Origin: an uncultured bacterium
GTDB taxonomy: Bacteria > Patescibacteriota > Minisyncoccia > Phycocordibacterales > UBA9973
Length of the DNA stretch: 64,000 nucleotides
NCBI GenBank assembly: GCA_903869825.1
Contig: CAIQAL010000001.1
Location: 7,185-71,184, forward strand
Direction of reading: 5' to 3'
Numbering within the stretch: position 1 is the stretch's first letter; each line of letters opens with the position of its first letter. The notes beneath the pieces are model-generated. The model did no database searches, had not been told where the DNA came from, and was given only the letters and a program-made list of their open reading frames with translations. Positions 19,443 through 64,000 of this stretch are shown here, piece by piece. The position numbers and the translations under genes were made by a program.

Positions 19443-19524
19443 TGCTGGAGGAGGGACTCGAACCCTCAAGCCTTGCGGCACTAGTTCCTAAGACTAGCGC
19501 GTATACCAATTCCGCCACTCCAGC
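19443..19524 (-). tRNA. tRNA-Leu (anticodon TAG), type II, long variable arm
   Basis: Reverse complement GCTGGAG-TG-GCGGAATTGGTATACGC-...-CTAGT-CTTAGGA-ACTAG-long arm-GGGTTCGAGTCCC-CTCCAGC-A. Acceptor 7 bp; anticodon loop CTTAGGA; CCA not encoded. Confidence 0.8.
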
Positions 19525-19562
19525 AAACATAATTTTATATAAATGTTTTAATTAAACATTTG

Positions 19563-19635
19563 TCCGCCCTGAAGGGATCGAACCTTCGACCTTATCCTTA
19601 AGAGGGATCTGCTCTACCAGCTGAGCTAAGGGCGG
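19563..19635 (-). tRNA. tRNA-Lys (anticodon CTT)
   Basis: Reverse complement CCGCCCT-TA-GCTCAGCTGGTAGAGC-A-GATCC-CTCTTAA-GGATA-AGGTC-GAAGGTTCGATCCCTTC-AGGGCGG-A. Anticodon loop CTCTTAA. Confidence 0.7.
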
Positions 19636-19681
19636 ATAATTAACTTTAACATGAAAATGAAAACAAATCTTATTAAGTTGT

Positions 19682-19763
19682 GTGCCCGGAGTGGGAGTCG
19701 AACCCACATCCCTTGCGAGACACGATTTTAAGTCGTGCGCGTATACCAATTCCGCCATCCGGG
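19682..19763 (-). tRNA. tRNA-Leu (anticodon TAA), type II
   Basis: Reverse complement GCCCGGA-TG-GCGGAATTGGTATACGC-...CACGA-CTTAAAA-TCGTG-long arm-GGGTTCGACTCCC-TCCGGGC-A. Confidence 0.8.
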
Positions 19764-19781
19764 CATTCTTGATTTGGACGG

Positions 19782-19853
19782 GAGGCCTGGGCCGGAATTG
19801 AACCGGCGTATATTCCTTTTGCAGAGGAATGCCTTACCACTTGGCTACCAGGC
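19782..19853 (-). tRNA. tRNA-Cys (anticodon GCA)
   Basis: Reverse complement GGCCTGG-TA-GCCAAGTGGTAAGGC-A-TTCCT-CTGCAAA-AGGAA-...-GCCGGTTCAATTCCGGC-CCAGGCC-T. Confidence 0.75.
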
Positions 19854-19911
19854 CTGAAAAATTTCAAATTTATCTTACTTAACTCCCAAGCTTCAAAAAA
19901 CCTTTTTAATC

Positions 19912-27507: not shown

Positions 27508-27590
27508 TGCGTCGGGTAGGATTCGAACCTACGTAGCCCGAAGGCGACAGATTTACAGTCTGTTGTAATTGACCACTCTACCACCGACGC
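27508..27590 (-). tRNA. tRNA-Tyr (anticodon GTA), type II
   Basis: Reverse complement GCGTCGG-TG-GTAGAGTGGTCAATTAC-...CAGA-CTGTAAA-TCTG-long arm GCCTTCGGGCTAC-GTAGGTTCGAATCCTAC-CCGACGC-A. Confidence 0.75.
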
Positions 27591-32160: not shown

Positions 32161-33459
32161 GTGAAGAATTATTTAAAAAAAAATTTACCAATAACCATTA
32201 TTGCTATTTTAGCTCTTGTTCCTATAATTAGATGGTTTTGCTTAGAACAAATGTCATTTCGTTTTTTTGATTTGAATTCCACCTCCACTTCTTTTGGGCA
32301 GATTACAGGACTTCTCGGAATGATGCTCTTTTCGTTAAATTTGATAATAAGCAATCGAAATAAATTCTTTGATGATTTTTTTTCGGGAATGGACCATTTC
32401 TATGATACCCATAAATGGCTAGGACAGATGGCTTTTTCACTTCTATTATTTCATCCGATTTTTTTAGTGGTAAAATATTTAAGTGTTTCCGTGCACGATG
32501 CAGCTTTTTTTCTGATTCCAAGTGGAAATTTTGCCAATACTATGGGCATTGTTGCTCTTTTTGGGATGATTCTACTTTTAGGTATTACCCTCTACTTGAA
32601 AATCAAATATCATATCTGGAGGTTTTCTCATAAATTTATGGTTTTAGTTTTTTGTTTCGCCATTTTGCATGTGATTTTAATTTCAAGCGATGTCTCTAGA
32701 GATCTCTTTTTAAGATATTATATTTTACTCTTTGCATTCATCGGACTTGTCTTCGGATTTTACCGGTCATTTTTGAGGATATTTTTCAATAACGATTATG
32801 AACTGAAGGTGAAGCGGTTAACTATTTTAAATAATAGTGTAACTGAGATAGAATTGACCCCAAAAGAAAAAATTTATTTTATCCCTGGCCAATTTCTTTT
32901 TATTCGTTTTTTTGGAAAAGAAATAAGTTCCGAACCGCATCCATTTTCATTTAGTTCTGCTCCAGGAGAAAGTAGTGTTAAAATTGCGATTAAATCTTTG
33001 GGGGACTATACTAGTAAAGTAAAAAATATCAAGAAAGGAACCAAGGCAAAGATAGAAGGCCCGTATGGAAAATTTTATGAAGTTGAAAAAGGGAAAAAAG
33101 AGATTTGGATTGCCGGCGGAGTCGGAATTACTCCATTCTTAAGTATGGCTAGAAGTCTTGAAGAAATAACCAATCAAATAGATTTGTACTATACTGTAGT
33201 AGAGAAGAAAGAACTTATTTTCTCGGAGGAGTTACAGTGGATTGCAGACAGAAATAAAAATTTTCGATTTTTTCCATGGCACTCGAGAGAAAATGGATAT
33301 TTAAATGCGTTAAAAATTAAAGAACTGAGCAGTGGGTTATTGGACGCAGATATATTTATTTGCGGGCCACTTTCCTTAATGAGAGCTTTAAAAAAACAAT
33401 TTATTAGTTTGGGAGTCGAAAAGAAAAATATACATTTTGAAGAATTTAATCTTTTATGA
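32161..33459 (+). CDS. NOX/ferric-reductase-like transmembrane flavocytochrome (heme-binding TM domain + FAD + NAD(P)H-binding domains)
   Basis: GTG start. TM domain carries paired His (HKWLG...LLLFHP; HKFMV...ILHVI). FAD-binding FR-type region IPGQFLFIRF...HPFSFSS; NAD-binding IWIAGGVGITPFLSM. Confidence 0.7.
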   Translation: MKNYLKKNLPITIIAILALVPIIRWFCLEQMSFRFFDLNSTSTSFGQITGLLGMMLFSLNLIISNRNKFFDDFFSGMDHFYDTHKWLGQMAFSLLLFHPIFLVVKYLSVSVHDAAFFLIPSGNFANTMGIVALFGMILLLGITLYLKIKYHIWRFSHKFMVLVFCFAILHVILISSDVSRDLFLRYYILLFAFIGLVFGFYRSFLRIFFNNDYELKVKRLTILNNSVTEIELTPKEKIYFIPGQFLFIRFFGKEISSEPHPFSFSSAPGESSVKIAIKSLGDYTSKVKNIKKGTKAKIEGPYGKFYEVEKGKKEIWIAGGVGITPFLSMARSLEEITNQIDLYYTVVEKKELIFSEELQWIADRNKNFRFFPWHSRENGYLNALKIKELSSGLLDADIFICGPLSLMRALKKQFISLGVEKKNIHFEEFNLL

Positions 33460-33974
33460 AAAAACTAACTGGGGTATCTTTGTTTATATATTTTTGTGTT
33501 GTGACTGCAATCTTAATTGTTGGACTTCTTTTTTATCAAATTAAAAATAACAATAGCAACGGCACCACAGGACCAAACACAAGAGCTCAAAATAAAACTG
33601 CAGATTTAGCAAATCTTCTGTCTTCCGGGGCTGCATTGCTTGATAACGTGGAAGTTTCTAAGCACAATGCCATTTCTGATTGTTGGATTATTGTGAATAG
33701 TAAAATTTATGATATTTCCGGCTATGCATCAGCTCATCCGGGCGGGGTAAGAAATATTGCATCATCTTGCGGAAAAGAATCTACTCAAGCTTACGACACA
33801 AAAGGGGGAAGAGGGAGTCCTCATTCGGCGTCGGCGAACCAAATGCTTGCACAATATTATATAGGAGATTTAAACCAAAAAATCAATCAAAGTACTCTTA
33901 CTCAAAATATTCAAAAAGCAAAAACTAACCCGGTTTCGGCAGTTTCAACGCAAGACGCTGGGTCGGATGATTAG
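33456..33974 (+). CDS. membrane-anchored cytochrome b5-like heme-binding domain protein
   Basis: N-terminal TM, then the cyt b5 signature ...DCWIIVNSKIYDISGYASAHPGG... Start overlaps the NOX-like stop (ATGA), which suggests translational coupling. Confidence 0.65.
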   Translation: MKKLTGVSLFIYFCVVTAILIVGLLFYQIKNNNSNGTTGPNTRAQNKTADLANLLSSGAALLDNVEVSKHNAISDCWIIVNSKIYDISGYASAHPGGVRNIASSCGKESTQAYDTKGGRGSPHSASANQMLAQYYIGDLNQKINQSTLTQNIQKAKTNPVSAVSTQDAGSDD

Positions 33975-35941: not shown

Positions 35942-36970
35942 ATGTCAACAATAACATTTAAACCAAAACAAGTTACAAAAAAAATCACTTCTCATCTCCA
36001 TGACCGTGCAAACGACGTAATAATGAACCGTTTTGGTTTGAATTCTGACGCTGAAAGAAAGACCTTGGAAGAAATCGGGAAGAAATACAGCATCACTCGC
36101 GAGAGGGTTAGACAAATCGAAGAAGCGGCTCTTACTTTGATAAAAAAATCAGAAGCTTACAAAGAAGAGCAGGCGGTTTTTGACGAATTGAAACAAGTGA
36201 TAAACTCTCTTGGTTCGATTGTTGCCGAACATGAACTTCTCCCTCATATCTCCAAAGATAAAGCAACCCAAAATCACATTCATTTTTATTTGGTACTTGG
36301 TGACGCATTTAAAAAACATCGTGAAGATAATAATTTTCATACCCGCTGGAGTGTGGATGATGAAGTAGCGGCAAAAGTTCATGAATCTTTGAAAAAACTT
36401 TATATCAGTTTGAAAGACGAAGACTTGATTACCGAAACAGAAATGATTAAAAGATTTTGCGACCAAACTAAAGAGGTTGCTGAAGAATATAAGAATGAAG
36501 AAATCATCAAACGATGGCTTTCAATGTCGAAAACTATTTCAAAAAATCCATTGGGAGAATGGGGGAAATCAACCTCTCCAAATATTCGTACTCGTGGCGT
36601 AAAAGATTATGCATTTCTCGTAATGAGACGCCATGGATCCCCAATGCACTTTCGAGAAGTGGCTGACAATATTTCAAAAACTTTTCACCGAAAAACTCAC
36701 TATGCCACTTGTCACAATGAACTTATCAAAGACCCAAGGTTCGTATTGGTAGGTCGTGGTATGTATGCACTAGCTGAATGGGGGTACAAAGCCGGAATTG
36801 CTCGAGAAATCATCCGAGATATTTTGAAACGAGAAGGACCACTTTCAAAAGACGATGTAGTTGAGAGAGTAATGAAAGAAAGATATTTTAAGAAAAACAC
36901 TATTTTAGTAAACTTGGTAAACTCAAAGTACTTCAAAAAAAACAAATCGGGACTTTACGCCTTAGTCTAA
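35942..36970 (+). CDS. DNA-binding protein with sigma-70 region-4-like HTH (N-terminal) and HARE-HTH-like winged helix (C-terminal)
   Basis: EEIGKKYSITRERVRQIEEAAL is sigma region-4.2-like. The C-terminus AFLVMRRHGSPMHFREVADNI...FVLVGRGMYALAEW resembles HARE-HTH. Confidence 0.5.
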   Translation: MSTITFKPKQVTKKITSHLHDRANDVIMNRFGLNSDAERKTLEEIGKKYSITRERVRQIEEAALTLIKKSEAYKEEQAVFDELKQVINSLGSIVAEHELLPHISKDKATQNHIHFYLVLGDAFKKHREDNNFHTRWSVDDEVAAKVHESLKKLYISLKDEDLITETEMIKRFCDQTKEVAEEYKNEEIIKRWLSMSKTISKNPLGEWGKSTSPNIRTRGVKDYAFLVMRRHGSPMHFREVADNISKTFHRKTHYATCHNELIKDPRFVLVGRGMYALAEWGYKAGIAREIIRDILKREGPLSKDDVVERVMKERYFKKNTILVNLVNSKYFKKNKSGLYALV

Positions 36971-51693: not shown

Positions 51694-52101
51694 ATGGAGA
51701 AAAAAATGACAAAAGAAAAATATATCGAGGCAGTTGGGAGAAGAAAAACTTCTACCGCGAGAGTGCGAATTACCGAGGGCAGCAAGTCCAGCTTTATTGT
51801 GAATGAAATGGATGCCAAAGATTATTTTAAGACCGATGAACAGAAACGCCTTATTATCGATCCGTTGGCCTCGATCACTGGAAGTAAATGGCACGTAGAA
51901 GTCCGAGTTTCAGGTGGAGGAATCCACTCTCAGGCTGAAGCAATCCGACATGGACTCTCAAGAGCTTTGGTAGAATCTGATCCAGAAATGCGTGGAAAAT
52001 TAAAAACATTGGGATTCCTGAAAAGAGACCCAAGAGCGAAAGAACGAAGAAAATTCGGACTCAAGAAAGCCCGCAAGGCTCCACAGTGGAGTAAACGTTA
52101 A
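51694..52101 (+). CDS. rpsI: 30S ribosomal protein S9
   Basis: GRRKTSTARVRITEG ... KKARKAPQWSKR C-terminus; 135 aa. Confidence 0.9.
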   Translation: MEKKMTKEKYIEAVGRRKTSTARVRITEGSKSSFIVNEMDAKDYFKTDEQKRLIIDPLASITGSKWHVEVRVSGGGIHSQAEAIRHGLSRALVESDPEMRGKLKTLGFLKRDPRAKERRKFGLKKARKAPQWSKR

Positions 52102-52103
52102 AA

Positions 52104-52131
52104 TAAAAAAATCCCCGAAAGGGGATTTTTA
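52104..52131 (+). terminator. rho-independent terminator after rpsI
   Basis: AAAAAAATCCCCGAAAGGGGATTTTT. Confidence 0.6.
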
Positions 52132-52163
52132 ATTGATAGTAATTTATGATAGTATAGAAATGT

Positions 52164-52775
52164 ATGAAAGATGAAGAAAAAGAAAAAAAAGAGGAAAATA
52201 AGGATGAAATGACGCCGAAGGAAGATGCTTCTGAGGTTTTAGAGTTTGAATTTAATGATGACGGAGAAGAAGATCTTAAAAAAACCATAAAAAAGCTTCG
52301 AGCAGAATTAAAGAAAATTAAAGCCGAAAAAGACGAATATTTAACCGGCTGGCAGAAAGAACGAGCGGATTTTGTGAACTACAAGAAACAAGACGAAGAC
52401 AGAAAGTTGAATTTCTCCGAATCAATCCGGGAAAGAATTCTAACCAGGTTTTTGAGTGTGGCGGACAGCTTCAATATGGCCTTTGCAAATAAAGAAGCTT
52501 GGGAAAAAGTTGATGAAAATTGGCGCAAAGGGGTGGAATATATCTATGGTCAGATGAATACTATATTTGAAGAATATGGAGTAAAATCAATCGGGGAAGC
52601 GGGAGAAAGTTTTGATCACAACATCCATCATTCGATAGAAATGATTCCGACTGATAAAAAAGAAGACGATCATAAAATTGCTGAGGTTATTCAAAGAGGA
52701 TACAAACTTGGTGACCGCGTAATTCGAGCTGCCCGAGTGAATGTTTTTGAGTACCATGACAAGCCCACAGAATAA
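52164..52775 (+). CDS. grpE: nucleotide exchange factor GrpE
   Basis: Acidic N-terminus, coiled coil (LRAELKKIKAEKDEYLTGWQKERADFVNYKK), C-terminal IQRGYKLGDRVIRAARVNV. Confidence 0.85.
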   Translation: MKDEEKEKKEENKDEMTPKEDASEVLEFEFNDDGEEDLKKTIKKLRAELKKIKAEKDEYLTGWQKERADFVNYKKQDEDRKLNFSESIRERILTRFLSVADSFNMAFANKEAWEKVDENWRKGVEYIYGQMNTIFEEYGVKSIGEAGESFDHNIHHSIEMIPTDKKEDDHKIAEVIQRGYKLGDRVIRAARVNVFEYHDKPTE

Positions 52776-54480
52776 AACCTGTCAGAATTGCAAGTGTGAC
52801 TTCATAATCGAATCTGAAGATTTTAATTTTTACGAGAAGATAAAGGTTCCACCACCGACTTGGTGTCCGGAATGTCGAATGATAAGACGTATGTCCTTTC
52901 GTGATTACAGGGTACTTTATAAAAGGAAAAGTGATAAAACGGGGAAAATAATTTTTTCTATTTTTCCACAAGAATCTCCTTTTAAAGTTTGGGAACGTGA
53001 TATTTGGTGGTCGGATGAATTGAATGCTCTTGATTACGGGAAAAACGTAGATTTTAATAAAAATTTCTTTATTCAACTAAAAGAACTTTTTTTTGATGTT
53101 CCTTCATCGGGGCAAACTTGTTGGAATATGGTCAATAGTGAGTATTGCACTGGTGCTAATAGTTTAAAAAATTGTTACCTGGTATTTGTATCCACGTTTT
53201 CAGAAGATTCCATGTATTGTGCAGAAATAAATAGAACAAAGAATTCTATTGACGTTACAAGAATCGAGTCGTCGGAATTGTGCTATCAATCTTTTGCTCT
53301 CATAAAGTGTTATCAAGCTTTCTTTTCTTCTCATTGTGAAAACTGCATGGATATCTGGTTTTCCAGAAACTTAGTTGGTTGTAATTATTGTTTTGGTTGT
53401 ACAAATTTAAGAAACAAGCAATACTGCGTTTTTAATAAACAATACACAAAAGAAAATTATATCAAATATGTAGATGATCTTGACCTAAGCTCTTACAAAT
53501 CAATGAAAGCGGTAAAAGAAAAGGCAGAAAAAGTAGTGGAAAAAAGTATCAGAAAATTCATGGAAGGACGATACAATTCTAATGTTTCCGGTGAGTACAT
53601 CAATAACTCAAAAAATACTTTTAATAGCTATTACGTTATTCAAGGAGAAGACAGTAAGTATGTTCAATCTTTTTTCACTCCTGGTTTTAAAGACTGCTAT
53701 GATTGTACGATGTGGGGACAAAATTCCGAATTATGCTATGAATGTTCTTCTGTCGGAGAAAATTGTTATAACAATAAATTTAATTATCGTTGCAGTAGAG
53801 GTTCGCATGATTGTGAGTATTCCTATAGTTGCTATGGAAGTTCAAATATTTTTGGTTGTTCTGGACTTATTAATAAACAATATTGCATTTTAAATAAACA
53901 GTACACAAAGGAAGAATATTCCAGACTAAGAGAAAAAGTAATCAAACACATGAATGATGTCCCATACTTAGACAAAAAGGGGACAATGTATACGTACGGA
54001 GAATTCTTCCCCTTAGAATTGTCTCCTTTTTCTTACAATGAATCAATGGCCCAGGATTATTTTCCCCTAGAAAAAAAACAAGCCGTTAACCTAGGTTTTA
54101 GGTGGAAGGATAAAGAAGAAAGGAATTACAAGATAGATATCAAAAATGAAAATATTCCTGATAGTAATAAAGACATTACGGAAGATATCTTAAACAAGGC
54201 GATTGAATGTGAAAACAAAAACAAAAACGTCGAATATTGTACTGAAGCGTTTAAAATTATTAAATCAGAGTTGCAGTTTTATAAAAAATTTAATTTACCA
54301 TTACCAAGATTATGCCCAAACTGTAGGCATTTTGATCGTTTAAAAATGAGGAATTCTTTGAAACTTTGGAACCGCAAATGTATGAAAGAAGGTTGTCAGA
54401 ATGAATTTGAAACCAGCTACGCTCCCGAATGTCCTGAAATCGTTTACTGTGAACGTTGTTATCAACAAGAAGTATACTAA
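52756..54480 (+). CDS. Cys-rich double zinc-ribbon paralog family protein, copy D
   Basis: Intact, ~575 aa. Start at ATG 52756 (MTSPQNKTCQNCKCDF...) overlaps the grpE stop by 20 nt in another frame; the ORF track's alternative start is 52741. Full architecture described in the findings. Confidence 0.65.
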   Translation: MTSPQNKTCQNCKCDFIIESEDFNFYEKIKVPPPTWCPECRMIRRMSFRDYRVLYKRKSDKTGKIIFSIFPQESPFKVWERDIWWSDELNALDYGKNVDFNKNFFIQLKELFFDVPSSGQTCWNMVNSEYCTGANSLKNCYLVFVSTFSEDSMYCAEINRTKNSIDVTRIESSELCYQSFALIKCYQAFFSSHCENCMDIWFSRNLVGCNYCFGCTNLRNKQYCVFNKQYTKENYIKYVDDLDLSSYKSMKAVKEKAEKVVEKSIRKFMEGRYNSNVSGEYINNSKNTFNSYYVIQGEDSKYVQSFFTPGFKDCYDCTMWGQNSELCYECSSVGENCYNNKFNYRCSRGSHDCEYSYSCYGSSNIFGCSGLINKQYCILNKQYTKEEYSRLREKVIKHMNDVPYLDKKGTMYTYGEFFPLELSPFSYNESMAQDYFPLEKKQAVNLGFRWKDKEERNYKIDIKNENIPDSNKDITEDILNKAIECENKNKNVEYCTEAFKIIKSELQFYKKFNLPLPRLCPNCRHFDRLKMRNSLKLWNRKCMKEGCQNEFETSYAPECPEIVYCERCYQQEVY

Positions 54481-54481
54481 T

Positions 54482-56137
54482 ATGAAACCAGAAACAAGAA
54501 CATGCGAACATTGTGGTAAGGAATTCTCTATTTCAGAAGAAGAATTAAATATGTATAAGAAGATAGATATTGAATTACCGACTATTTGCTTTTTTTGCCG
54601 AGTAAAAATTCACTTGTCTTTTTGGATGTTCGGAAAATTTCGAAAAGGAAAATCTGATCTTTCTGGGGAAAGCTTAATAACAGTTTTGCCTAATAAAAAT
54701 CGTTATCCAATCTATACTCTAACGGAATGGTGGAGCGATAAATGGGATGCAATGGATTTTGGACAAGATTACGATCAACAAAGAACTTTTTTTTCTCAGC
54801 TAAAGGAATTGCAAGAAAAAGTCCCGCATCCACATCAAAACGGTAGTAAAAATACAGGATGTGATTGGTGTGACGATGTTTGGAATTCTAAAAATTGTTA
54901 TTTAGCTCGCTCGATGGTTGATTGTGAAGATTTATATTATTCTTACAGAAACTTAAATGTTAAAAATTCTATAGATGTGACTGTTTGCTATAACTCTGAA
55001 AAGCTATTTGATTCGTTAAATTGCCTTCATTCTTTTAAAATTTTTTATTCAAGAAACTCAAGAGACTGTGTAGAATCGTATTTTTTATTTGATTGTCGTA
55101 ATTGTCAAAATTGTTTCATGTGCTGGAACTTGAGAGGTAAATCATTTTGTATAGAAAATATCCAATATACTAGGGATGATTATTTTGAAAAATTAAAATC
55201 ATTTAACTTAGGGTCATATAAGTCAATTCAAAATTTCAAAATAAGATTTGAGGAAATAGCACGTACCGAAGTTGTGCATAGAGAAAATTTTAACCTTAAA
55301 ATTCATAATTCTGACGGAGATCAATTAATTAACTGTAAGAATTGTCATAACTCGTTTACTATAAGCGATTCAGAAGATAGTTATAATTGCATAAGAGGAA
55401 AGAATGAAAAGTCTAACATTGACGCCAATGGCACATGGGATTCTGAATTAATAGGTAATTGTAGTTCTTGTTTTGGTGGTTATATGCAAAAATATTGTGC
55501 TTGGTCAACTTCTCGATTTTCAGAATACTTGGATTTATGTTTAGAATGCGAAAATTGTTTTGGTTGTGTCGGACTTAAAAAGAAAAAATATTGTATTTTA
55601 AATAAGCAATATGAAAAAGAAGAATATGAAAAACTTATGTTGGAAATTATTACTAATATGAAAAAAAGGGGAGAGTATGGAAAGTTTTTACCTTTTCTAA
55701 TGTCTGCAGGGCCATTTAATTTCTCTACAAGCTTTCTGTATTTTCCAGAAACGAAAAAAGAAGATATTTTAAAGCTTGGAGGTTATTGGGAGGATGTTGA
55801 TGAAAGTCATATCGAAGGAATGCTGACTAGTGAATTACCTGATAGCATAAAAGATGTTCCTGATAATATTATTACCGAAGCCTTAATTTGTCCACAAACT
55901 GGTTGGCGTTTCAATATTGCACAGAACGAACTAAATTTTTACCGGCAAAATAATATTCCGCTGCCTAGACGACATTTTGATGTTAGAATTAAAGACAATA
56001 TAAAATATTCGACAGTGTTGCAATCTTATCATTACAAATGTTTTTATTGTAAAATAGATATCGATGGCTATTATCCGCCGGAGTGGGAATATAAAAAAAT
56101 TGCTTGTGAAGAGTGTTACAAGCAAAATATTAACTAA
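54482..56137 (+). CDS. Cys-rich double zinc-ribbon paralog family protein, copy E
   Basis: Starts 1 nt after copy D's stop (MKPETRTCEHCGKEFSISEEELNMYKKIDIELPTICFFCR...). The ORF-track start 54401 lies inside D and is rejected. ~551 aa. Confidence 0.65.
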   Translation: MKPETRTCEHCGKEFSISEEELNMYKKIDIELPTICFFCRVKIHLSFWMFGKFRKGKSDLSGESLITVLPNKNRYPIYTLTEWWSDKWDAMDFGQDYDQQRTFFSQLKELQEKVPHPHQNGSKNTGCDWCDDVWNSKNCYLARSMVDCEDLYYSYRNLNVKNSIDVTVCYNSEKLFDSLNCLHSFKIFYSRNSRDCVESYFLFDCRNCQNCFMCWNLRGKSFCIENIQYTRDDYFEKLKSFNLGSYKSIQNFKIRFEEIARTEVVHRENFNLKIHNSDGDQLINCKNCHNSFTISDSEDSYNCIRGKNEKSNIDANGTWDSELIGNCSSCFGGYMQKYCAWSTSRFSEYLDLCLECENCFGCVGLKKKKYCILNKQYEKEEYEKLMLEIITNMKKRGEYGKFLPFLMSAGPFNFSTSFLYFPETKKEDILKLGGYWEDVDESHIEGMLTSELPDSIKDVPDNIITEALICPQTGWRFNIAQNELNFYRQNNIPLPRRHFDVRIKDNIKYSTVLQSYHYKCFYCKIDIDGYYPPEWEYKKIACEECYKQNIN

Positions 56138-56138
56138 T

Positions 56139-56672
56139 TTATTTTTTGAGAGCTTTAAGAAATTCCAGATTTGTTTCCGGATCAAGTTTTTCAGTAACAA
56201 TAATCATCAATTCCGAACAAAGGCCCAAATCTTTTTTAATATTCGTGAAAAGATATTCGTATGGATGAGGGGAGATCCAGACGGTATTTTTTATGCAAAC
56301 GAAATTCGCTTTCTTGAGTAAGTAGCGTAATGCTTCACGTTCGCTTTTTCTTTCTTCAGGAATATCTAAAATTATAATTCGCCAAAGTCCGTCCCAGGTA
56401 TTTGACACGAGTGCTTCTTCGCCTTCGAGACGAATGGAGTTTAATTTTCTTTGGCCTTTTTTGGTAATTTTCAGGTATTTTTGGTTGTCGGAACTGTGGA
56501 TTTCCACGCAACCTGATTCGATTAATTGCTTGATAGAGCGGGCGAGGGCATAGTTTTTCTTTTGGTCTTTCCCTTTTATTGCTTCAACAGAAATGGCAGG
56601 TTTTTCAGACAAAACTTTCAAAATAGCCTTTTGAATATTGGGTTTTTTGATGTTTTTTACTACTTTATCCAT
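56139..56672 (-). CDS. PaaX-family-like transcriptional regulator (N-terminal winged helix + PaaX_C-like domain), short form
   Basis: WDGLWRIIILDIPEERKSEREALRYLLKKANFVCIKNTVWISPHPYE matches the PaaX C-terminal signature (WDG.W...D.PE..R..R..L...GF..L.NSVW.SP). N-terminal wHTH IQKAILKVLSEKPAISVEAI. Its stop is 1 nt from copy E's stop on the other strand. Confidence 0.5.
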   Translation of the reverse strand: MDKVVKNIKKPNIQKAILKVLSEKPAISVEAIKGKDQKKNYALARSIKQLIESGCVEIHSSDNQKYLKITKKGQRKLNSIRLEGEEALVSNTWDGLWRIIILDIPEERKSEREALRYLLKKANFVCIKNTVWISPHPYEYLFTNIKKDLGLCSELMIIVTEKLDPETNLEFLKALKK

Positions 56673-56709
56673 AACACTTGCATTATACCAAAATCTGATT
56701 ATAATATCA

Positions 56710-56739
56710 ACAAGTATTTTGCGACCACGAAATACTTGT
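56710..56739. promoter_or_regulatory. perfect 10-bp inverted repeat ACAAGTATTT-N10-AAATACTTGT (operator candidate) in the regulator/dnaK divergent region
   Basis: Arms at 56710-56719 and 56730-56739. The right arm overlaps the putative dnaK -35 box. Confidence 0.45.
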
Positions 56740-56764
56740 CAAAATTATTAGATGGGTATATACT
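56736..56764 (+). promoter_or_regulatory. sigma70 promoter candidate for dnaK (TTGTCA-17-TATACT)
   Basis: TTGTCA at 56736-56741 and TATACT at 56759-56764; leader ~55 nt to the dnaK ATG. Confidence 0.4.
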
Positions 56765-56825
56765 TGAAAAGTAAAATAAATTATTAGCTTGCCCCGCCAA
56801 AAGCGTGGGATAATCGAAAAAAAAT

Positions 56826-58736
56826 ATGTCAAAAATTATTGGGATAGACTTAGGTACAACAAATTCAGCGGTAGCTATAATTGAAGGAGGCGTACCAAAA
56901 ATTATTGAAAACGTCGAAGGAAATCGCACGACTCCTTCGGTGGTAGCAACTGCTAAAAATGGCGATCGTATCGTGGGGTTACTTGCAAAAAGACAAGCAG
57001 TGACAAATCCAGAAAATACCATCGCGGAAATCAAGCGCTATATGGGGCACCGCTTTGATGATCCGGGAGTGCAAAAAGATAAAATTTCTGCTCCATTTAA
57101 AATTGAAGCTGAAGAAAACGGCGGAGTGAAAGTAAAAATGTCCGACAAATTTTATCGGCCGGAAGAAATTTCTGCCATGGTATTGCAGAAAATAAAAGCA
57201 GACGTCGAAGCAAAATTGGGAGAAAAAATTACCGAAGCGGTCATTACCGTGCCGGCATATTTTAATGATGCTCAAAGAAAGGCAACGAAAGATGCTGGTC
57301 TTATTGCTGGGCTTGATGTAAAGAGAATTATCAACGAACCGACGGCCGCAGCGCTTGCTTACGGATTCAATAAAAAGAAAAATGAAAAGATTGTGGTATA
57401 CGATTTCGGAGGTGGAACCTTTGATGTGTCTGTACTTGAGATCGGAGATGATGTAATAGAAGTAAAATCGACCGATGGAGACTCTCACATGGGCGGAGGT
57501 GATATTGATCGAAAAATAATTACTTGGATTGCGGAAGAATACAAAAAGGAATCTGGAGTGGACGTTAGAAAAGATCCACTTGCTCACCAACGTTTAAAGG
57601 AAGCGGCTGAAAAAGCAAAACACGAACTCTCTACCACAATGGAAACAGAAATCAATATTCCTTTTATCACTTCCGATGCATCAGGACCGAAACACTTACT
57701 CATGAAAATGTCTCGAGCCACCTTGGAATCTTTGGCCAAAGAATACATTGACCGCTCGATAGAGATAACCAAGCGTGCTTTAGAAGCTTCGCCGTTTAAA
57801 ATGGCGGAGATAGATGAGATTATTATGGTTGGCGGTCAAACTCGAATGCCAGCTATTGTAGAGGCGGTAAAAAACCTTTTCGGGAAAGCTCCAAATATGT
57901 CTATCAACCCGGATGAAGTCGTAGCTCTTGGAGCTGCAGTGCAGGCAGGAGTGTTGGCAGGAGACGTGCGAGATGTTTTACTGCTCGACGTCATTCCACT
58001 TTCCTTGGGAATTGAAACCTTGGGAGGCGTGGGAACAAAATTGATTGAAAGAAATACTACTATTCCGGCTTCAAAATCACAAGTGTTTTCAACTGCTGCC
58101 GACAATCAAACAAGCGTTGAGATTCATATTGTCCAAGGAGAACGTCCGATGGCCGCTGACAACAAATCACTCGGCCGGTTTATTTTGGATGGTGTTCCAC
58201 CATCTCCTCGAGGAATGCCTCAAATCGAAGTCACTTTTGATATTGATGCAAACGGAATCTTAAATGTGAAAGCGCAAGATAAAGCATCCGGGAAAGTGCA
58301 ATCAATCAAGATTGAAGCAAGTTCTGGATTAAAAGATGAGGATATTAAAAAAATGCAAGCGGATGCTGAAATTCACGCAGAAGAAGATAAAAAGAAAAGG
58401 GAATTAGTGGATGTGAAAAATACCGCTGAGATGATTATTTACACTGCGGAAAAAGCAGTGAAAGAGAATGATGCAAAAATTCCGGAAGATATCAAGAAAA
58501 CAGTAAATGAGAAAATCTCAGCTCTTCGTTCAGTAAAAGACAGTACGGATATGGAGGCTGTCAAAAAAGCGACCGAAGAACTTTCAGCTGAGATGTCTAA
58601 AATCGGCGAAGCTATGGCAAAAGCTGGAGCGACCGATACCAAAGACACAACCCCAGAAGAACAAAATCCAGAAGTGTACGATGCCGAATTCAAGGAAGAT
58701 AAAGACAAGCCTGGAAGCGAAGCTCCTAAACAATAA
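56826..58736 (+). CDS. dnaK: molecular chaperone DnaK (Hsp70)
   Basis: [34 protein letters not shown]; 636 aa. Confidence 0.95.
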
Positions 58737-58749
58737 AATTTGTTTTCAA

Positions 58750-58778
58750 AAAGACCCAACATGGGGCTTTTTGTTTTT
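58750..58778 (+). terminator. terminator candidate after dnaK (imperfect stem + T-rich run)
   Basis: AAGACCCAACATGGGGCTTTTTGTTTTT. Confidence 0.35.
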
Positions 58779-58787
58779 CACCTTTGT

Positions 58788-58796
58788 GATATAATT
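58788..58796 (+). promoter_or_regulatory. extended -10 (TGaTATAAT) 7 nt upstream of the ATPase-1 ATG; candidate leaderless transcript
   Basis: TGTGATATAAT at 58786-58796; ATG at 58803. Confidence 0.35.
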
Positions 58797-58802
58797 TATC
58801 TA

Positions 58803-61037
58803 ATGGAAATGCCGAAAATACCTATGAATAAGGATATGACCTATATTGGTTTGACCACTTATCGTGATAAAAACCAGCTTTTTGGGATTAAACGAAAAGA
58901 CCGTCGTCAGCATGTATATTTACTAGGGAAGTCTGGTACCGGTAAATCCGTCCTGATGTTCAATATGATTATCCAGAACATCAAGAATGGCGATGGAGTT
59001 TGTGTAGTTGACCCGCACGGAGAACTCGTGGAAGGAGTTCTTTCTGCTATTCCACCACACCGAATGAAAGATGTTGTTTACTTTAATCCAGCCGATCCGG
59101 ACTATCACATTGGTTTTAATGTGCTTGAACTTATTGACCCGAAATACAAACACCTTATCGCTTCGGGCCTCATGGGAATTTTTACCAAAATTTGGGCGAA
59201 TGCTTGGAGTGCTCGAATGGAATACATTTTGAACAATGCTATTTTGGCTTTGCTTGATACTCCGGGGACGACGATGCTTGGAATCCCGAGAATGCTGGTG
59301 GACAAAGATTATCGCCAGAAAATAATTTCAAATTTAAAAGACCCGGTCATTAAAGCTTTTTGGATTCATGAATATGAAGAATGGCAAGACAAATTTCGAA
59401 ACGAAGCGATTGCTCCTATTCAAAATAAAGTCGGGCAATTTCTTTCGACCCCGATTATCAGAAATGTCGTTGGCCAAGCGGAAAGCACAATAAATATTTT
59501 TGACATAATGAACGAAGGAAAGATTTTCTTAGTGAACGTTTCAAAAGGACGTATCGGAGAAGATAACTCATCGCTTTTGGGAGGAATGATTATTACCAAA
59601 ATTCAGTTGGCTGCAATGGAACGGGTTCGAATTCCGGAAGAGGAACGAAGAGATTTTTATTTGTATGTTGACGAATTTCAAAATTTTGTTACCGATTCTT
59701 TTGCCGGGATATTGTCGGAAGCTAGAAAATACCGCTTAAACTTAACGGTGGCGCACCAGTACACTGCCCAGCTTGTTTCGGACAAAAGTTCCAGTGTTAG
59801 AGATGCTGTTTTCGGAAACGTTGGAACAATGATTGTTTTTCGAGTAGGTTCGGATGACGCAGACTTTTTGGAAAAGGAATTTGATCCAGAATTTACTCCC
59901 CAAGATATTGTAAACTTACCAAACTACAAAATTTATCTTAAATTAATGATTGATGGAGTCACTTCTAGACCATTCTCAGCTAAAACTTTGCCACCAATGG
60001 CGCACGGAGATCCGAAAGTGGAAGAAGAAGTAATAAAAAGTTCTCGTGAACTTTATTGTAAGACAAGAGAAATAGTAGAACGGGAAATAAATAATTGGAG
60101 TGGAATGTCGCTCGGCAATGAGAATGATACTGGAGGGGTTGAAAAGTTTCCTGCGGTTTGTTCAATTTGCAAAAAAGAAACTTTTGTCCCATTTAAACCT
60201 GAACCAGGCAGACCTGTTTACTGTAAGGATTGTATTGCAAAATTAAAATCAGGTGAATTAAAACCAGTCAAGGGTTCGATTAACCAGATCAAATATGATG
60301 AAGGTAAATTCTATAAACCACTGTCGGATCTAGGAATTGAATTTGAACAAAAAACTCCATCAGTGGCGCAAGCAAAAACAATGGAAGGAGATAGATATCC
60401 TGAGAGAACAGACAGAATAGGGCATGTGGATAATAATCAGACAAATGCTCGACCCGGAATTTTCTCCGCAATTAAAAAAGTATTTAATAAAAATGCTATG
60501 CCTGTCGGATTACAACCAAAGGGTAATTTAAATACGCAGCCGGTTAGAAATAATTTTATGAAAAATAAGCCAAAGGCAGTTCATTCAGCTAATGGCAATA
60601 TTGCCTTGAAGGAAATATTGAATAAAACCTTAAATGAAGCTTTGGCCGAAAAAAAACAAGTTCCAGAAATCAAGCCTGAACAGATTGTTAAAGAAAACCC
60701 AAATATTCCAAAACCAATTTCCTTAAATGAACTTAAAACTCAAACACCTGAAGTAACTTTTGTCCCGAAAGATAAATCAGCCAAACCGGAAGATATGAAT
60801 AGATTGAAGAATTTTATAATAGGAAAAAATTTAGAACATAAAGAAGAAGTTGTTCAGACTTCACCTTCCGTCGAACCTATTCCAGTATCAACTTCAACAT
60901 CAATGCCGATACCGGAACCAATTCCTGAACCAATTCCATCTCCGATTCCTCTTGCATTATCACCTGAACAAACACCGGAACCAAAAACTTCAACTAAGGA
61001 AGTGCCTGAAGATGTTCTCAGAAAAATGCTAGAGTAA
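58803..61037 (+). CDS. TraG/TraD/VirD4-type (type IV coupling-protein-like, AAA_10/TraG-D_C) ATPase with C-terminal CxxC...CxxC zinc ribbon and Pro-rich low-complexity tail (ATPase-1)
   Basis: Walker A LLGKSGTGKS, VVDPHGEL, Walker B FYLYVDEFQNF, and RKYRLNLTVAHQY...NVGTMIVFRVG (TraG-D_C-like). No N-terminal TM. C-terminal ribbon CSICKKETFVPFKPEPGRPVYCKDC. Start at 58803, because the upstream part of ORF 58740 contains the dnaK terminator. Confidence 0.6.
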   Translation: MEMPKIPMNKDMTYIGLTTYRDKNQLFGIKRKDRRQHVYLLGKSGTGKSVLMFNMIIQNIKNGDGVCVVDPHGELVEGVLSAIPPHRMKDVVYFNPADPDYHIGFNVLELIDPKYKHLIASGLMGIFTKIWANAWSARMEYILNNAILALLDTPGTTMLGIPRMLVDKDYRQKIISNLKDPVIKAFWIHEYEEWQDKFRNEAIAPIQNKVGQFLSTPIIRNVVGQAESTINIFDIMNEGKIFLVNVSKGRIGEDNSSLLGGMIITKIQLAAMERVRIPEEERRDFYLYVDEFQNFVTDSFAGILSEARKYRLNLTVAHQYTAQLVSDKSSSVRDAVFGNVGTMIVFRVGSDDADFLEKEFDPEFTPQDIVNLPNYKIYLKLMIDGVTSRPFSAKTLPPMAHGDPKVEEEVIKSSRELYCKTREIVEREINNWSGMSLGNENDTGGVEKFPAVCSICKKETFVPFKPEPGRPVYCKDCIAKLKSGELKPVKGSINQIKYDEGKFYKPLSDLGIEFEQKTPSVAQAKTMEGDRYPERTDRIGHVDNNQTNARPGIFSAIKKVFNKNAMPVGLQPKGNLNTQPVRNNFMKNKPKAVHSANGNIALKEILNKTLNEALAEKKQVPEIKPEQIVKENPNIPKPISLNELKTQTPEVTFVPKDKSAKPEDMNRLKNFIIGKNLEHKEEVVQTSPSVEPIPVSTSTSMPIPEPIPEPIPSPIPLALSPEQTPEPKTSTKEVPEDVLRKMLE
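60895..60960 (+). repeat. low-complexity PIPEPIPEPIPSPIP coding repeat in the ATPase-1 tail
   Basis: ccgataccggaaccaattcctgaaccaattccatctccgattcct. Confidence 0.5.
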
Positions 61038-61056: not shown

Positions 61057-62823
61057 GTGTTCAAAAATTTTATGAATTCGGAAACTAAAACCCCCAATTT
61101 TGATAAATTGTTAGATGAAATTTTAGAAAAAATTGTGCCTCACGAAAGAGAATGTGCACAGAAAGATATCTCAAAATATTGTGAAAAAAAATTCAGAATT
61201 TATGATGAAGATATAAAATTTTATAAATTACTTCGGGTGCCACCCCCAAAGTGTTGTCCGACTTGCCGGCGGCAGAGACGGAATGCCTTTACCAACAGAA
61301 TATATTTATATAAAAGAAAAGATGATGCTCCCGGGAATTCAAAGGAAGTAATATCTTTTGTTCCTCCTGTCTCGCCATTTGTTGTTTATAATTTGGATTA
61401 TTATAGAAGTTCCAAATGGGACCCAATTTCTTTTGCTGTTGACTATGATTTCTCAGTGCCATTTTTTGATCAATTTTTTGATTTACGATTGAAAGTGCCC
61501 CAGTATGCTATTGTACGGGACCCTTCAAGTATTAATAGCGAGTATTCTTTAAATGGGCGTAACTTAAAAAATGGTTATTTAGTGAGTGGTGGAACCGACT
61601 CAGAAAATCTCTGGTATAGTATTTTTATAAAAAATTCAAGGGAAGTTATGGACAGTCATAGTATAGACAAGTGCGAACAGTGCTCTGAAATGATTTTGAC
61701 CAAAAATATGAATCTATGCTTCTATTGTTATTTTTCTTTCAACTGTATCAGTTCTTATTTTTTACTTGATTGTCGTAATTGCCAAAATTGTTTTGGCTGT
61801 TCAAATTTGCGCAATAAAAAATATTGCTTTTTTAATAAACAACTTGGGAAAGTTGAGTACGAAGAAAAAATAAAATCTATGAGATTAGATTCTAGGTCTG
61901 GACTTAAAGATGCAAGAAAAAAATTTTGGGAATTCGTAAAGCAAAATCCAGTAAGAGCTTCTCGTTCCAGCCGGTCAGTAAATTCCAGTGGGTTGGCCAT
62001 TATCAATTCAAGGAATTGTCAGAATGTTATATCTTGTGAAAACGGAGAAAATGAAAGGTATGTCAATATGGTCACTAACCACAAAGACTCGATGGATGTG
62101 TACACTTCAGGTGATTCAGAACTTTTGTATGAAGTATCTTGGGTAGGAGCGGGCGCTTCAAATATTAAATTCTCATTTGGTTCAAAAAATGTTACTAATT
62201 GCGAATTTGTTATTAATTGTCATTATTGTGACAATTGTTTTGCTTGTATCGGACTTGAAAATAAAAAATATCATATTTTAAATCGCCCTTATGGTAGAGA
62301 CGAATATTTCAAAGAATTGGATAAAATTAAGTTATCTCTTTTAAAGAGCGGAGAGTATGGTGAGTTCCTACAGTGTCGATTTAGTACTTTTGCGTACAAT
62401 GGCTCTGAAGCAGATTTATATTTTCCACTTGATCAATACGAGACAAAAAAAATTGGGGCATACTATCAACCTGATAGTGGAATAGAAACACAAGGGATAA
62501 AAATTGCAGAAGCAAAAGATATCCCAGACAAAATAATTGATGTGGAAGATAATATTTTAGACGAAGCAATTACTTGCGAAAAAACCGGTCGCCTTTTTAA
62601 AATTATTAAAAGCGAACTTGATTTCTATAGAAGATATAAGCTACCCATTCCTACCTTTCACCCTTTGGAGCGAATGAAAAGCACTTATTGGTATTTGGTT
62701 GGAGATAATATCGTTTATAAAGATTTTTGTGATAAATGTGGAATTCCGATAGAAACAATCTATAATCCAAAAAATAATTGGAGACTTTATTGTGAAAGTT
62801 GTTATCAAAAAGAGGTATATTAA
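61057..62823 (+). CDS. Cys-rich double zinc-ribbon paralog family protein, copy F
   Basis: 588 aa, intact. CEKKFRIYDEDIKFYKLLRVPPPKCCPTCRRQRR ... CRNCQNCFGCSNLRNKKYCFFNKQ ... CEKTGRLFKIIKSELDFYRRYKLPIPTF ... YCESCYQKEVY. Confidence 0.65.
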   Translation: MFKNFMNSETKTPNFDKLLDEILEKIVPHERECAQKDISKYCEKKFRIYDEDIKFYKLLRVPPPKCCPTCRRQRRNAFTNRIYLYKRKDDAPGNSKEVISFVPPVSPFVVYNLDYYRSSKWDPISFAVDYDFSVPFFDQFFDLRLKVPQYAIVRDPSSINSEYSLNGRNLKNGYLVSGGTDSENLWYSIFIKNSREVMDSHSIDKCEQCSEMILTKNMNLCFYCYFSFNCISSYFLLDCRNCQNCFGCSNLRNKKYCFFNKQLGKVEYEEKIKSMRLDSRSGLKDARKKFWEFVKQNPVRASRSSRSVNSSGLAIINSRNCQNVISCENGENERYVNMVTNHKDSMDVYTSGDSELLYEVSWVGAGASNIKFSFGSKNVTNCEFVINCHYCDNCFACIGLENKKYHILNRPYGRDEYFKELDKIKLSLLKSGEYGEFLQCRFSTFAYNGSEADLYFPLDQYETKKIGAYYQPDSGIETQGIKIAEAKDIPDKIIDVEDNILDEAITCEKTGRLFKIIKSELDFYRRYKLPIPTFHPLERMKSTYWYLVGDNIVYKDFCDKCGIPIETIYNPKNNWRLYCESCYQKEVY

Positions 62824-62887: not shown

Positions 62888-64000
62888 ATGCCAAAACCGA
62901 ATCGAGTTCAAATAATCAAATATGCGCCACCCCCACCGGAATTACCGGTTTTTGGTAAGGTGAAACCGGAAGAAGTTTCTTTTATTGGGCGCACGAACTA
63001 TGTGGCAGCTCTCGAGGAAAAGAAATTTATTTTTGGATTAAAGCGAGTTGATCGAAGGAGGCATTTATATATTATTGGGAAGTCAGGGGTGGGGAAAACA
63101 AAACTACTGGAACTATTTATTCGCCAGGATATCACTTACAATCACGGACTGTGTTTGATTGACCCTCACGGAGATGTTATCGAAGGCGTACTTGATTACA
63201 TTCCGAAAGAAAGAATGGAAGATGTATGTATTATCGATCCGACAGATACTGAATTCCCTGCATCATTTAATCCACTTGCGAACGTTGACCCATTGTTTAA
63301 ATTTCAGTTGACTCAAGGGTTGATTGAAGTCTTCCAGAAACAATTTGGAGCCAATTGGACACCTCGCCTCGAACACGTTTTCCGTTTTACCTGTCTTGCA
63401 TTGCTTGATTATCCACATGCCACGATGCGAGGAATGATTTCAATGTTGACCGACCGAAATTATCGACAGAAGGTAGTGGAATATATTACAGACGATATGG
63501 TAAAAAGATTCTTCGCTATTGAATTCGCGGACTGGTCCGAGAAATTCGATACTGATGCTATTATTCCACTTGTAAACAAGCTCGGTCAATTTCTGTCCGA
63601 TCCGCTCTTACGTAATATTTTTGGACAAAAAGAAAACAAGATTGATATTAGTCAATTAATGAATGATGAAAAAATCATTCTGATTAATTTATCAAAAGGG
63701 CGCTTAGGAGAAGAAAATTCAAGTTTCTTGGGATCAATTTTCTTGACTAAAATCAAGCAAGCAGGGATGGAGCGGGCGGCTATCCCAGAATCAGAACGTA
63801 AAGATTTCTATCTGTACGTGGACGAGTTTCAAAACGTGGTGACTCAGACATTTGAAAACATTTTATCGGAAGCCAGAAAGTATGCCCTGAATCTGACTAT
63901 CGCGCATCAGTATGTCGGTCAGATTATCCCTCGAGTACATCAAGCAGTGCTCGGGAACTGTGGTTCCGTTATTACTTTCCGTATTGGGGGGGAAGACGCG
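62888..64000 (+). CDS. TraG/TraD/VirD4-type ATPase, paralog of ATPase-1 (ATPase-2; 3'-truncated by window edge)
   Basis: Not in the ORF track because there is no stop in the window. MPKPNRVQIIKYAPPPPELPVFGKVKPEEVSFIGRTNYVAALEEKKFIFGLKRVDRRRHLYIIGKSGVGKTKLL...IDPHGDV...FYLYVDEFQNVV...RKYALNLTIAHQY...NCGSVITFRIGGEDA is collinear with ATPase-1. TGGTAAAAT extended -10 at 62868-62876. Confidence 0.6.
   Translation, partial: MPKPNRVQIIKYAPPPPELPVFGKVKPEEVSFIGRTNYVAALEEKKFIFGLKRVDRRRHLYIIGKSGVGKTKLLELFIRQDITYNHGLCLIDPHGDVIEGVLDYIPKERMEDVCIIDPTDTEFPASFNPLANVDPLFKFQLTQGLIEVFQKQFGANWTPRLEHVFRFTCLALLDYPHATMRGMISMLTDRNYRQKVVEYITDDMVKRFFAIEFADWSEKFDTDAIIPLVNKLGQFLSDPLLRNIFGQKENKIDISQLMNDEKIILINLSKGRLGEENSSFLGSIFLTKIKQAGMERAAIPESERKDFYLYVDEFQNVVTQTFENILSEARKYALNLTIAHQYVGQIIPRVHQAVLGNCGSVITFRIGGEDA

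Follow-up and report, generated by a model that had tools for sequence, protein, structure and literature searches.

Organization of the grpE-dnaK region

We analyzed a 64-kb stretch of DNA (the window, to whose numbering all coordinates refer) from a Paceibacteria-type member of the Patescibacteria (candidate phyla radiation, CPR), in which the Hsp70 genes grpE and dnaK are parted by two cysteine-rich (Cys-rich) genes, D and E, and by the gene of a PaaX-like regulator. A map of the open reading frames (ORFs) and domain scans gave the order rpsI, terminator, grpE, D, E, PaaX-like gene (minus strand), dnaK, ATPase1, F, and ATPase2, and the ORF map, Pfam, and NCBIfam together bear out the layout proposed in an initial annotation of this DNA (grpE-D-E-PaaX-like-dnaK-TraG-like ATPase-1). 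The genes of the locus are:

51694–52101: rpsI, upstream of grpE
52164–52775, plus strand: grpE, nucleotide exchange factor (PF01025, E 1.6e-36)
52756–54480, plus strand: Cys-rich copy D, 574 aa (579 aa from an alternative ATG at 52741)
54482–56137, plus strand: Cys-rich copy E, 551 aa from the ATG favored by homology
56139–56672, minus strand: PaaX-like regulator gene, 177 aa, PaaX_M (PF20803), E 2.3e-19
56826–58736, plus strand: dnaK (Hsp70), PF00012 E 4e-243, NF001413 937 bits against a cut-off of 648
58740–61037, plus strand: ATPase1, type IV coupling protein (T4CP)/HerA-like, with TrwB_AAD_bind, T4SS-DNA_transf, DUF87, and zf_Tbcl_2 matches
61057–62823, plus strand: Cys-rich copy F, 588 aa, C-terminal zinc finger matching zf_Tbcl_2 weakly
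62888–64000, plus strand: ATPase2, T4CP/HerA-like, cut by the window end

All matches of grpE to the NCBIfam GrpE models fall below their cut-offs. The distance from grpE to dnaK is 3363 bp, taken up by D, E, the regulator gene, and a 153-bp promoter spacer, and the window does not show the canonical contiguous, co-directional grpE-dnaK-dnaJ arrangement. Base composition is uniform along the window, and there is therefore no sign of a foreign island. The ATG of D lies inside the 3′ end of grpE, with an overlap of 20 nt (ATG 52756) or 35 nt (ATG 52741), as had been noted initially; E had been given a start at 54401, which the N-terminal family alignment replaces with a probable start at ATG 54482, 1 nt past the stop of D. 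The regulator gene is convergent with E, as first described, with 1 nt between the two stop codons. The same gene diverges from dnaK, and the 153-bp spacer between them holds a perfect inverted repeat that had been overlooked.

A perfect palindrome lies between back-to-back promoters

The regulator-dnaK spacer contains the following features:

56682–56710, minus strand: regulator promoter-like site, TTGATA-17-TATAAT with TG, 11/12 consensus matches, −10 box 9 nt 5′ of the ATG
56710–56739: 30-bp palindrome, predicted operator, ACAAGTATTTTGCGACCACGAAATACTTGT, outer 10 nt of the arms pairing perfectly
56736–56764, plus strand: distal dnaK promoter-like site, TTGTCA-17-TATACT, 10/12, −35 box overlapping the right operator arm
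56806–56814, plus strand: possible proximal extended −10 of dnaK, TGgGATAAT, 11 nt 5′ of the ATG, as read from the sequence

The repeat, ACAAGTATTT-N10-AAATACTTGT, is a perfect 10-N10-10 palindrome and the top-ranked inverted repeat of the 11-kb region. Searched for with up to 3 mismatches, this pattern matches once in 64 kb, and only 1 of 100 shuffled sequences gave any match. Scored with a position weight matrix (PWM) built from the aligned sites of the relatives described below, the window palindrome reaches 46.9 bits (best of 20 shuffles, 2.9 bits), and no second position in the 64-kb window attains the reporting threshold of 8 bits. The palindrome sits between the two best sigma-70-like sites of the region, which are arranged back to back, and each −35 box touches or overlaps the end of one arm. 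We also considered the dnaK 5′ untranslated region as an RNA thermometer and rejected it, its hairpin being no better than those of shuffled sequences (z −0.6).

Operator and synteny are conserved in relatives

Look-ups, together with a scan of the GTDB species representatives, yielded 66 loci that carry the regulator (L numbers below) and that represent about 60 species-level genomes. By tblastn, dnaK (grpE-dnaK in L064) is the divergent neighbor of the regulator in 61 of the 66; the other five end too near the regulator to show a divergent neighbor. Calling a site at 20 or more of 28 matches to the consensus ACAAGTATTTcGcGgtCgCGAAAtACTTGt, we found one palindrome in 62 of the 66 loci and two weak candidates in L059, always in the divergent promoter region between regulator and dnaK. 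The 59 unique site sequences align without gaps, with information content that peaks on the consensus and drops in the flanks, and on the dnaK side a −10-like element, gTATATAAT, recurs at fixed spacing with a 50–80% majority across these 59 aligned relatives. An independent pattern scan of metagenomes added 17 contigs with sites of at least 27 bits, all flanked by dnaK, and by the regulator too wherever the contig reaches that far. The other metagenomic half-site matches were mostly chance occurrences on GC-rich contigs, and sites of 20–30 bits with no dnaK nearby were inspected and dismissed. Only two extra sites emerged from the PWM scan of the window and the 66 loci: L033 has a weaker one immediately upstream of dnaJ, and L036 has a weak one.

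The operator tracks the Hsp70 genes rather than the regulator. In four sister-lineage loci (L064, 2585–3862; L187, 5184–6549; L188, 5281–6573; L189, 5354–6519), the regulator diverges from a contiguous grpE-dnaK-dnaJ unit beside rpsI. L187 has the operator upstream of grpE at 27.7 bits and L189 at 38.8 bits; L064 (8.3 bits) and L188 (below threshold) have palindromes at the same place with the same ACAAGT/CTTGT arms and a different core, replaced in L188 by CATATATATG with the outer arms retained. Where genes have entered the spacer, the site has stayed with dnaK: a membrane-protein gene lies between regulator and operator in L065 (9302–10099), in which the operator is still 35 nt upstream of dnaK, and an IS200/RayT-like transposase gene was inserted on the regulator side in L014 (9278–9997). 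The split between grpE and dnaK reported at first is real, and it is lineage-specific; the sister lineages keep the three genes contiguous downstream of the operator.

The tight convergent junction between E and the regulator is not a conserved antisense feature; the gap is 10 nt or less in only 11 of 49 loci, and we rejected this candidate. The Hsp70 locus of the relatives is a hotspot for gene gain, and genes for Fic-domain proteins and an ABC transporter are variably inserted in it (L191, 946–2046 and 9881–11662; L005, 3730–4167).

The regulator has a predicted PaaX-like fold without the ligand domain

The regulator has 1763 detected homologs, of which the best 120 are 63–100% identical; the named ones among these 120 all come from metagenome-assembled genomes of Paceibacterota, Nomurabacteria, or Patescibacteria. 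Across 61 genome loci, the protein is 44–84% identical to the window copy. Its sole Pfam domain is PaaX_M (PF20803; residues 91–169, 69.7 bits with a cut-off of 24), and the PaaX equivalog model TIGR02277 gave 26.7 bits, far short of the 264.55 set for equivalogs. No match to the PaaX-type wHTH (winged helix-turn-helix) domain of the N terminus (PF07848) was seen at E ≤ 0.01, and by sequence this part matches MarR/TcaR proteins weakly. An AF2 model (predicted local distance difference test score, pLDDT, 77.9) comprises a wHTH domain at residues 13–78 and a beta-alpha-beta-alpha-beta-alpha domain at residues 97–176. Foldseek against the PDB ranked PaaX of Escherichia coli W (8a39, E 3e-5) best, with both domains matched and a high root-mean-square deviation due to a different domain orientation; further matches were MarR and PadR wHTH proteins and the PaaX-like structures 3kfw and 3l09. 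With 177 residues, the protein stops just past PaaX_M, and it has no match to PaaX_C (PF08223).

PaaX is the phenylacetyl-CoA-responsive repressor of the paa catabolon in E. coli and Pseudomonas. No paa gene was found in the window, and the Pfam-annotated loci of 15 relatives showed none among their called genes. The regulator shares the PaaX fold and is no PaaX ortholog, and "PaaX" annotations in these genomes are misleading. It probably shares the PaaX mode of action. PaaX itself is a three-domain, autoregulated repressor whose C-terminal domain binds phenylacetyl-CoA, and it represses divergent promoters in competition with RNA polymerase from an operator of the form TGATTC-N27-GAATCA (PMC9493321).

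CIRCE and HAIR are absent and no hrcA was found in the window

Class I heat-shock control of the dnaK and groESL operons is exerted by HrcA on CIRCE (controlling inverted repeat of chaperone expression), and in actinobacteria and others the MerR-family repressor HspR, whose gene stands at the dnaK operon's 3′ end, acts on HAIR (HspR-associated inverted repeat). The best CIRCE match in the 64 kb, and the only one with 3 or fewer mismatches, has 3 mismatches and lies at 12906 inside gyrA; there is none at grpE or dnaK, in agreement with the initial annotation. HAIR (CTTGAGT-N7-ACTCAAG) has one match with 2 mismatches, at 18164, where 2.5 are expected by chance, and none at the dnaK promoter. No hrcA was found among window ORFs of at least 150 aa or among the called genes of the 15 annotated relatives' loci. 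The statement that neither dnaJ nor hrcA is adjacent accordingly holds within the window for hrcA (at that ORF size) and, for dnaJ, is true inside the window only.

grpE has its own candidate promoter

Two features lie between rpsI and grpE:

52107–52130: terminator-like hairpin after rpsI, AAAAATCCCC-gaaa-GGGGATTTTT
52147–52155, plus strand: candidate extended −10 promoter of grpE, TGaTAGTAT, 8 nt 5′ of the ATG

The hairpin divides the ribosomal-protein operon from grpE, and a hairpin with a T-run recurs upstream of grpE in most relatives, as does a TGnTAnnAT element 6–9 nt 5′ of the grpE ATG. An mRNA initiated from this candidate element would be of the leaderless type. No palindromic operator was found at the grpE promoter, either in the PWM scan of the window or in the grpE upstream regions of relatives. 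Across the grpE-D-E junctions, terminator-like sites are absent and no promoter-like site scores above 9/12; of 20 relatives in which a Cys-rich gene neighbors grpE, about 13 have a Cys-rich alignment that overlaps or abuts grpE. Co-transcription of D and E with grpE, as first proposed, is likely from these overlapping or abutting genes and from the lack of an intervening terminator-like or strong promoter-like site.

As a separate observation, three starts in the region lie 8–11 nt 3′ of an extended −10 (TGnTAnAAT) with no Shine-Dalgarno sequence (52147–52163, 56673–56690, and 56806–56825), and the same spacing is seen in the grpE upstream regions of L009, L025, L066, and others. This suggests that leaderless or near-leaderless expression may be widespread in the lineage.

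The Cys-rich family is large and dispersed

D, E, and F are paralogs with 32–34% identity and 28–36 Cys each. The family has more than 7196 homologs (a lower bound, counted among the candidates listed); every named one is called "hypothetical," and hardly any homolog carries a Pfam domain. The invariant Cys make up ribbons, one at the N terminus (CxxC...CxxC) and two at the C terminus, and between them lie two internal modules of C-x8-C ladders, each closing with CxxCxxC(xxC)-x8-C. The proteins are built of treble-clef zinc ribbons at both ends and two solenoid-like Cys-ladder modules (the AF2 model of copy D has a pLDDT of 81.5). Against Pfam they show only weak treble-clef matches (zf_Tbcl and zf_Tbcl_2), a PDB profile search gave only weak LIM-like zinc-finger matches (E 0.02), and Foldseek against the PDB gave nothing below E 4; the last zinc finger weakly resembles that of ATPase1 (hhalign E 0.0098, probability 4%). 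Searches of Pfam (to E ≤ 5), NCBIfam, and PADLOC gave no function. In D, E, and F, no signal peptide or hydrophobic segment was found, regular-expression searches found no J-domain, HPD, or CxxCxGxG motif, and no DnaJ Pfam model matched at E ≤ 5. A full-text literature search returned no paper describing this family.

Depending on the species, 0 to 5 copies stand between grpE and the regulator, and in 17 relatives this slot is empty. Orthologs of E (72–75% identity) lie directly after grpE in L018, L020, L022, and L028, and L191 has four post-grpE copies, the last of which is a close ortholog of D. Members of the family also recur at the margin of the cell-wall mur cluster, as after murG (L192, 8001–9782), and lie directly before recA (L193, 8001–9821), and before infA. 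The window itself holds six copies, among them one at 1–585 that is cut by the window start and precedes a MurD-like ligase gene (590–1936), and two that are frameshifted (30331–31473/31529–32116 and 46221–46685/46703–47932). The frame offsets of the two split copies are 1 and 2, and these could be pseudogenes, assembly errors, or programmed frameshifts. The family is large, dispersed in housekeeping operons, cytoplasmic, and not chaperone-specific, and the post-grpE slot is one of several recurrent positions and no evidence of a chaperone function.

We rejected the idea that the Cys-rich genes are a defense system or mobile element; they have no PADLOC match, are old paralogs (32–48% identity), and keep positional orthologs. 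A split copy and a P-type cation ATPase gene are followed at 32161–33974 by genes for a ferric-reductase-like membrane flavoprotein and then a cytochrome b5-like protein, a metal/redox neighborhood that may be relevant to the family's metal content.

Two coupling-protein-like ATPases lie between dnaK and dnaJ in relatives

In relatives, the order is dnaK, ATPase1, 0–2 Cys-rich genes, ATPase2, and dnaJ, with ATPase1 after dnaK in 30 of the 35 loci that have enough flank. The truncated last ORF of the window, compared by eye, closely resembles ATPase2 of L006 (3397–4977). Since dnaJ directly follows ATPase2 in the relatives, it is expected about 0.5 kb past the window end, and the reported lack of dnaJ is probably an effect of the window edge. 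Calls of a "split operon" or of "no dnaJ" depend on window edges and on lineage-specific insertions.

In 18 other loci, ATPase2 shares 75–95% identity with the L006 copy (87–95% in 16 of the 18), and it is far more conserved than the regulator. ATPase1 has a treble-clef zinc finger of the form CxxC-x17-CxxC and a long tail of low complexity, rich in Pro, Glu, and Lys; its true start is probably the ATG near 58803. Inspection of the translations revealed no evident N-terminal membrane anchor in either ATPase, and we take both to be soluble. Their Pfam domain matches pass the cut-offs, and every NCBIfam TraD/VirD4 conjugation model is far below its own. There is no terminator-like site between dnaK and ATPase1, and a promoter-like site lies ahead of ATPase2. 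Cys-rich genes are present in 24 of 30 loci with the T4CP-like ATPase and in 1 of 5 loci without it, a purely descriptive co-occurrence, the loci being phylogenetically non-independent.

Other features of the window

A full-length clpB gene (24761–27460; Clp_N, two AAA modules, and ClpB_D2-small) lies 30 kb upstream of the locus, with no operator or CIRCE ahead of it. Rfam found only five tRNAs in the whole window, four clustered at 19443–19854 and one at 27508–27590 (minus strand) between clpB and a P-type ATPase gene. A protein with two T4SS_pilin repeats (PF18895) is encoded at 16934–17683, near the gene of a TIG-domain protein (18616–19362, minus strand), and a 342-aa protein with Sigma70_r4 and HARE-HTH domains at 35942–36970.

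A model for control of the locus

We consider it likely, from sequence and comparative evidence, that the window holds a lineage-specific, expanded Hsp70 locus in which a miniature PaaX-like repressor acts on the 30-bp operator, grpE is uncoupled from this control, and the Cys-rich genes are not chaperone-specific. The proposed unit would run rpsI, terminator, grpE-(Cys-rich)n, the regulator gene in the opposite orientation, operator, and dnaK-ATPase1-(Cys-rich)n-ATPase2-dnaJ. The regulator combines a wHTH with a Cas2-like dimerization domain and most likely binds the ACAAGTATTTcGcG-NN-CgCGAAATACTTGT palindrome as a dimer. As the two −35 boxes are overlapped by the palindrome ends, binding would repress the regulator gene as well as the dnaK unit, by occlusion of the −35 boxes of two intrinsically strong, near-consensus promoters set back to back. 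Proteotoxic stress may relieve this repression, through thermolability of the regulator or its titration by DnaK/DnaJ; since the protein lacks the ligand domain of PaaX, a small ligand is an unlikely trigger of release. The regulator would thereby fill the role that HrcA/CIRCE or HspR/HAIR has elsewhere, a replacement that we regard as probable. In this lineage, grpE would be uncoupled from the operator and read from its own extended −10 promoter, with D and E downstream.

Several points weigh against this reading. Transcription of dnaK could be driven by the element at 56806–56814, some 80 nt downstream of the operator, where simple occlusion would fail, and the site center, at about −46 or −49 from the predicted starts, is also compatible with activation. 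Neither clpB nor grpE has an operator site, leaving a regulon of at most one operon in this genome, which is unusual for a general heat-shock regulator. The absence of hrcA covers 64 kb of the genome only, and the position of dnaJ past the window is predicted from relatives. What we observed are the gene identities, their synteny, the conservation of the operator, the geometry of the promoter-like sites, and the distribution of the family; DNA binding, repression, the stress response, and the operon boundaries are what we infer.

Activation also figures in a narrower account, in which the palindrome is either the regulator's autoregulatory site only or an activator site, and its adjacency to dnaK means nothing for dnaK regulation. 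Divergent regulators commonly autoregulate, a site centered near −46 to −49 fits some activators, and there is a possible proximal dnaK promoter. The comparative data point the other way: in L065 the site stays by dnaK and the regulator is parted from it by another gene, in L187 and L189 it lies ahead of grpE-dnaK-dnaJ (L064 and L188 have related palindromes there), L033 has an additional site upstream of dnaJ, and regulator and dnaK are linked across about 60 species. The near-consensus flanking promoters should, in addition, need no activator, and we hold this account to be very improbable. Another alternative, raised by the initial annotation, ties D and E functionally to the chaperones, as clients or metal-dependent co-chaperones that are co-regulated with the heat-shock response through the grpE transcript. 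It draws on the overlapping or abutting grpE-D-E junctions, on a Cys-rich gene directly after grpE in about 22 of the 39 relatives in which both are visible (with the E-type ortholog keeping its place), on further family members between dnaK, the ATPases, and dnaJ, and on the co-occurrence of Cys-rich and ATPase genes (24/30 loci against 1/5). We judge it improbable. The grpE promoter has neither the operator nor any other conserved element, the sole conserved operator of the region being at the dnaK promoter, so that heat-shock co-regulation through grpE finds no support; nor does a client or co-chaperone role, given that D, E, and F have no J-domain, HPD, CxxCxGxG, or chaperone-related Pfam match. 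The variable occupancy of the slot (0–5 copies, with 17 empty relatives), the members in mur, recA, and ribosomal clusters, and the frameshifts in two of the six window copies likewise speak against a chaperone link of the family.

The Cys-rich proteins and the two ATPases might instead form a lineage-specific machine with DnaK/DnaJ that perhaps remodels or delivers substrates, the unit dnaK-ATPase1-F-ATPase2-dnaJ being one regulon under the PaaX-like repressor. The conserved order dnaK-ATPase1-(Cys)n-ATPase2-dnaJ would fit, as would a level of ATPase2 identity (75–95% to L006 in 18 loci) that exceeds the 44–84% of the regulator, the C-terminal treble-clef zinc finger common to ATPase1 and the Cys-rich family, and the dnaK-ATPase1 gap free of terminator-like sites. 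Sister lineages, however, have dnaK-dnaJ with neither ATPases nor Cys-rich genes, ATPase2 is preceded by a promoter-like site, the zinc-finger likeness is weak, and the physical or regulatory coupling of such a machine is conjecture; we think it unlikely. To a still broader proposal, that the truncated PaaX-like protein is an undescribed, clade-wide Hsp70 repressor replacing HrcA/CIRCE and that the ATPases and Cys-rich proteins are new proteostasis components, we give little credence as a whole.

Patescibacteria are abundant, mostly uncultured, and have reduced genomes, and to our knowledge almost nothing is known of their gene regulation. A full-text literature search found no dnaK regulator described for Patescibacteria and no paper linking PaaX-like proteins to dnaK. 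The regulator-operator pair, present in about 60 species, offers a concrete hypothesis for control of the main chaperone in these cells and, if it is right, would extend the PaaX/Cas2-like regulator fold to stress control. The regulator and operator, initially treated as a mere interruption, are the more informative part of the locus. The Cys-rich family is one of the large unannotated families of the phylum, and the present data set limits on its function.

Comparison with known systems

The proposed system resembles HrcA/CIRCE in that a repressor gene lies beside the Hsp70 genes and a long palindrome stands at the promoter of the grpE/dnaK/dnaJ unit, and the regulator here, like HrcA, is probably autoregulated. 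HrcA belongs to an unrelated protein family, whereas the regulator here combines a wHTH with a Cas2-like PaaX_M domain in 177 aa, and the operator, ACAAGTATTTcGcG-N2-CgCGAAATACTTGT, is unrelated to CIRCE, TTAGCACTC-N9-GAGTGCTAA. Moreover, hrcA is the first gene of its operon, whereas the regulator gene here is transcribed divergently, and no groESL or clpB site was seen. With HspR/HAIR, it shares the physical tie of the regulator to the dnaK operon and a small regulon centered on Hsp70 genes, and feedback through DnaK is plausible here as well; HspR differs in belonging to the MerR family and in having its gene at the operon's 3′ end, and HAIR is absent from the dnaK promoter here.

PaaX and the regulator have in common the central Cas2-like domain (PF20803) and, by the AF2 model, a wHTH. 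E. coli PaaX has 305 aa, whereas the 177-aa regulator lacks the C-terminal five-helix phenylacetyl-CoA-binding domain, and in place of the widely spaced TGATTC-N27-GAATCA there is a compact 30-bp palindrome. The ATPases resemble type IV coupling proteins (VirD4/TraD/TrwB) and HerA/FtsK-like proteins in their P-loop core and their TrwB_AAD_bind, T4SS-DNA_transf, TraG-D_C, and DUF87 matches; they differ in having zinc fingers and no evident membrane anchor, in having no adjacent type IV secretion system genes, and in being set between dnaK and dnaJ. Like the DnaJ zinc finger (four CxxCxGxG repeats), D, E, and F are Cys-rich and probably zinc-binding, but their pattern consists of terminal CxxC ribbons, C-x8-C ladders, and CxxCxxCxxC...C. 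Finally, the locus agrees with the canonical (hrcA-)grpE-dnaK-dnaJ operon in its three genes, their order, and their common strand, and the sister lineages of this clade have them contiguous; it differs in the two Cys-rich genes and the regulator gene between grpE and dnaK and, in the relatives, in the two T4CP-like ATPases and additional Cys-rich genes that part dnaK from dnaJ.

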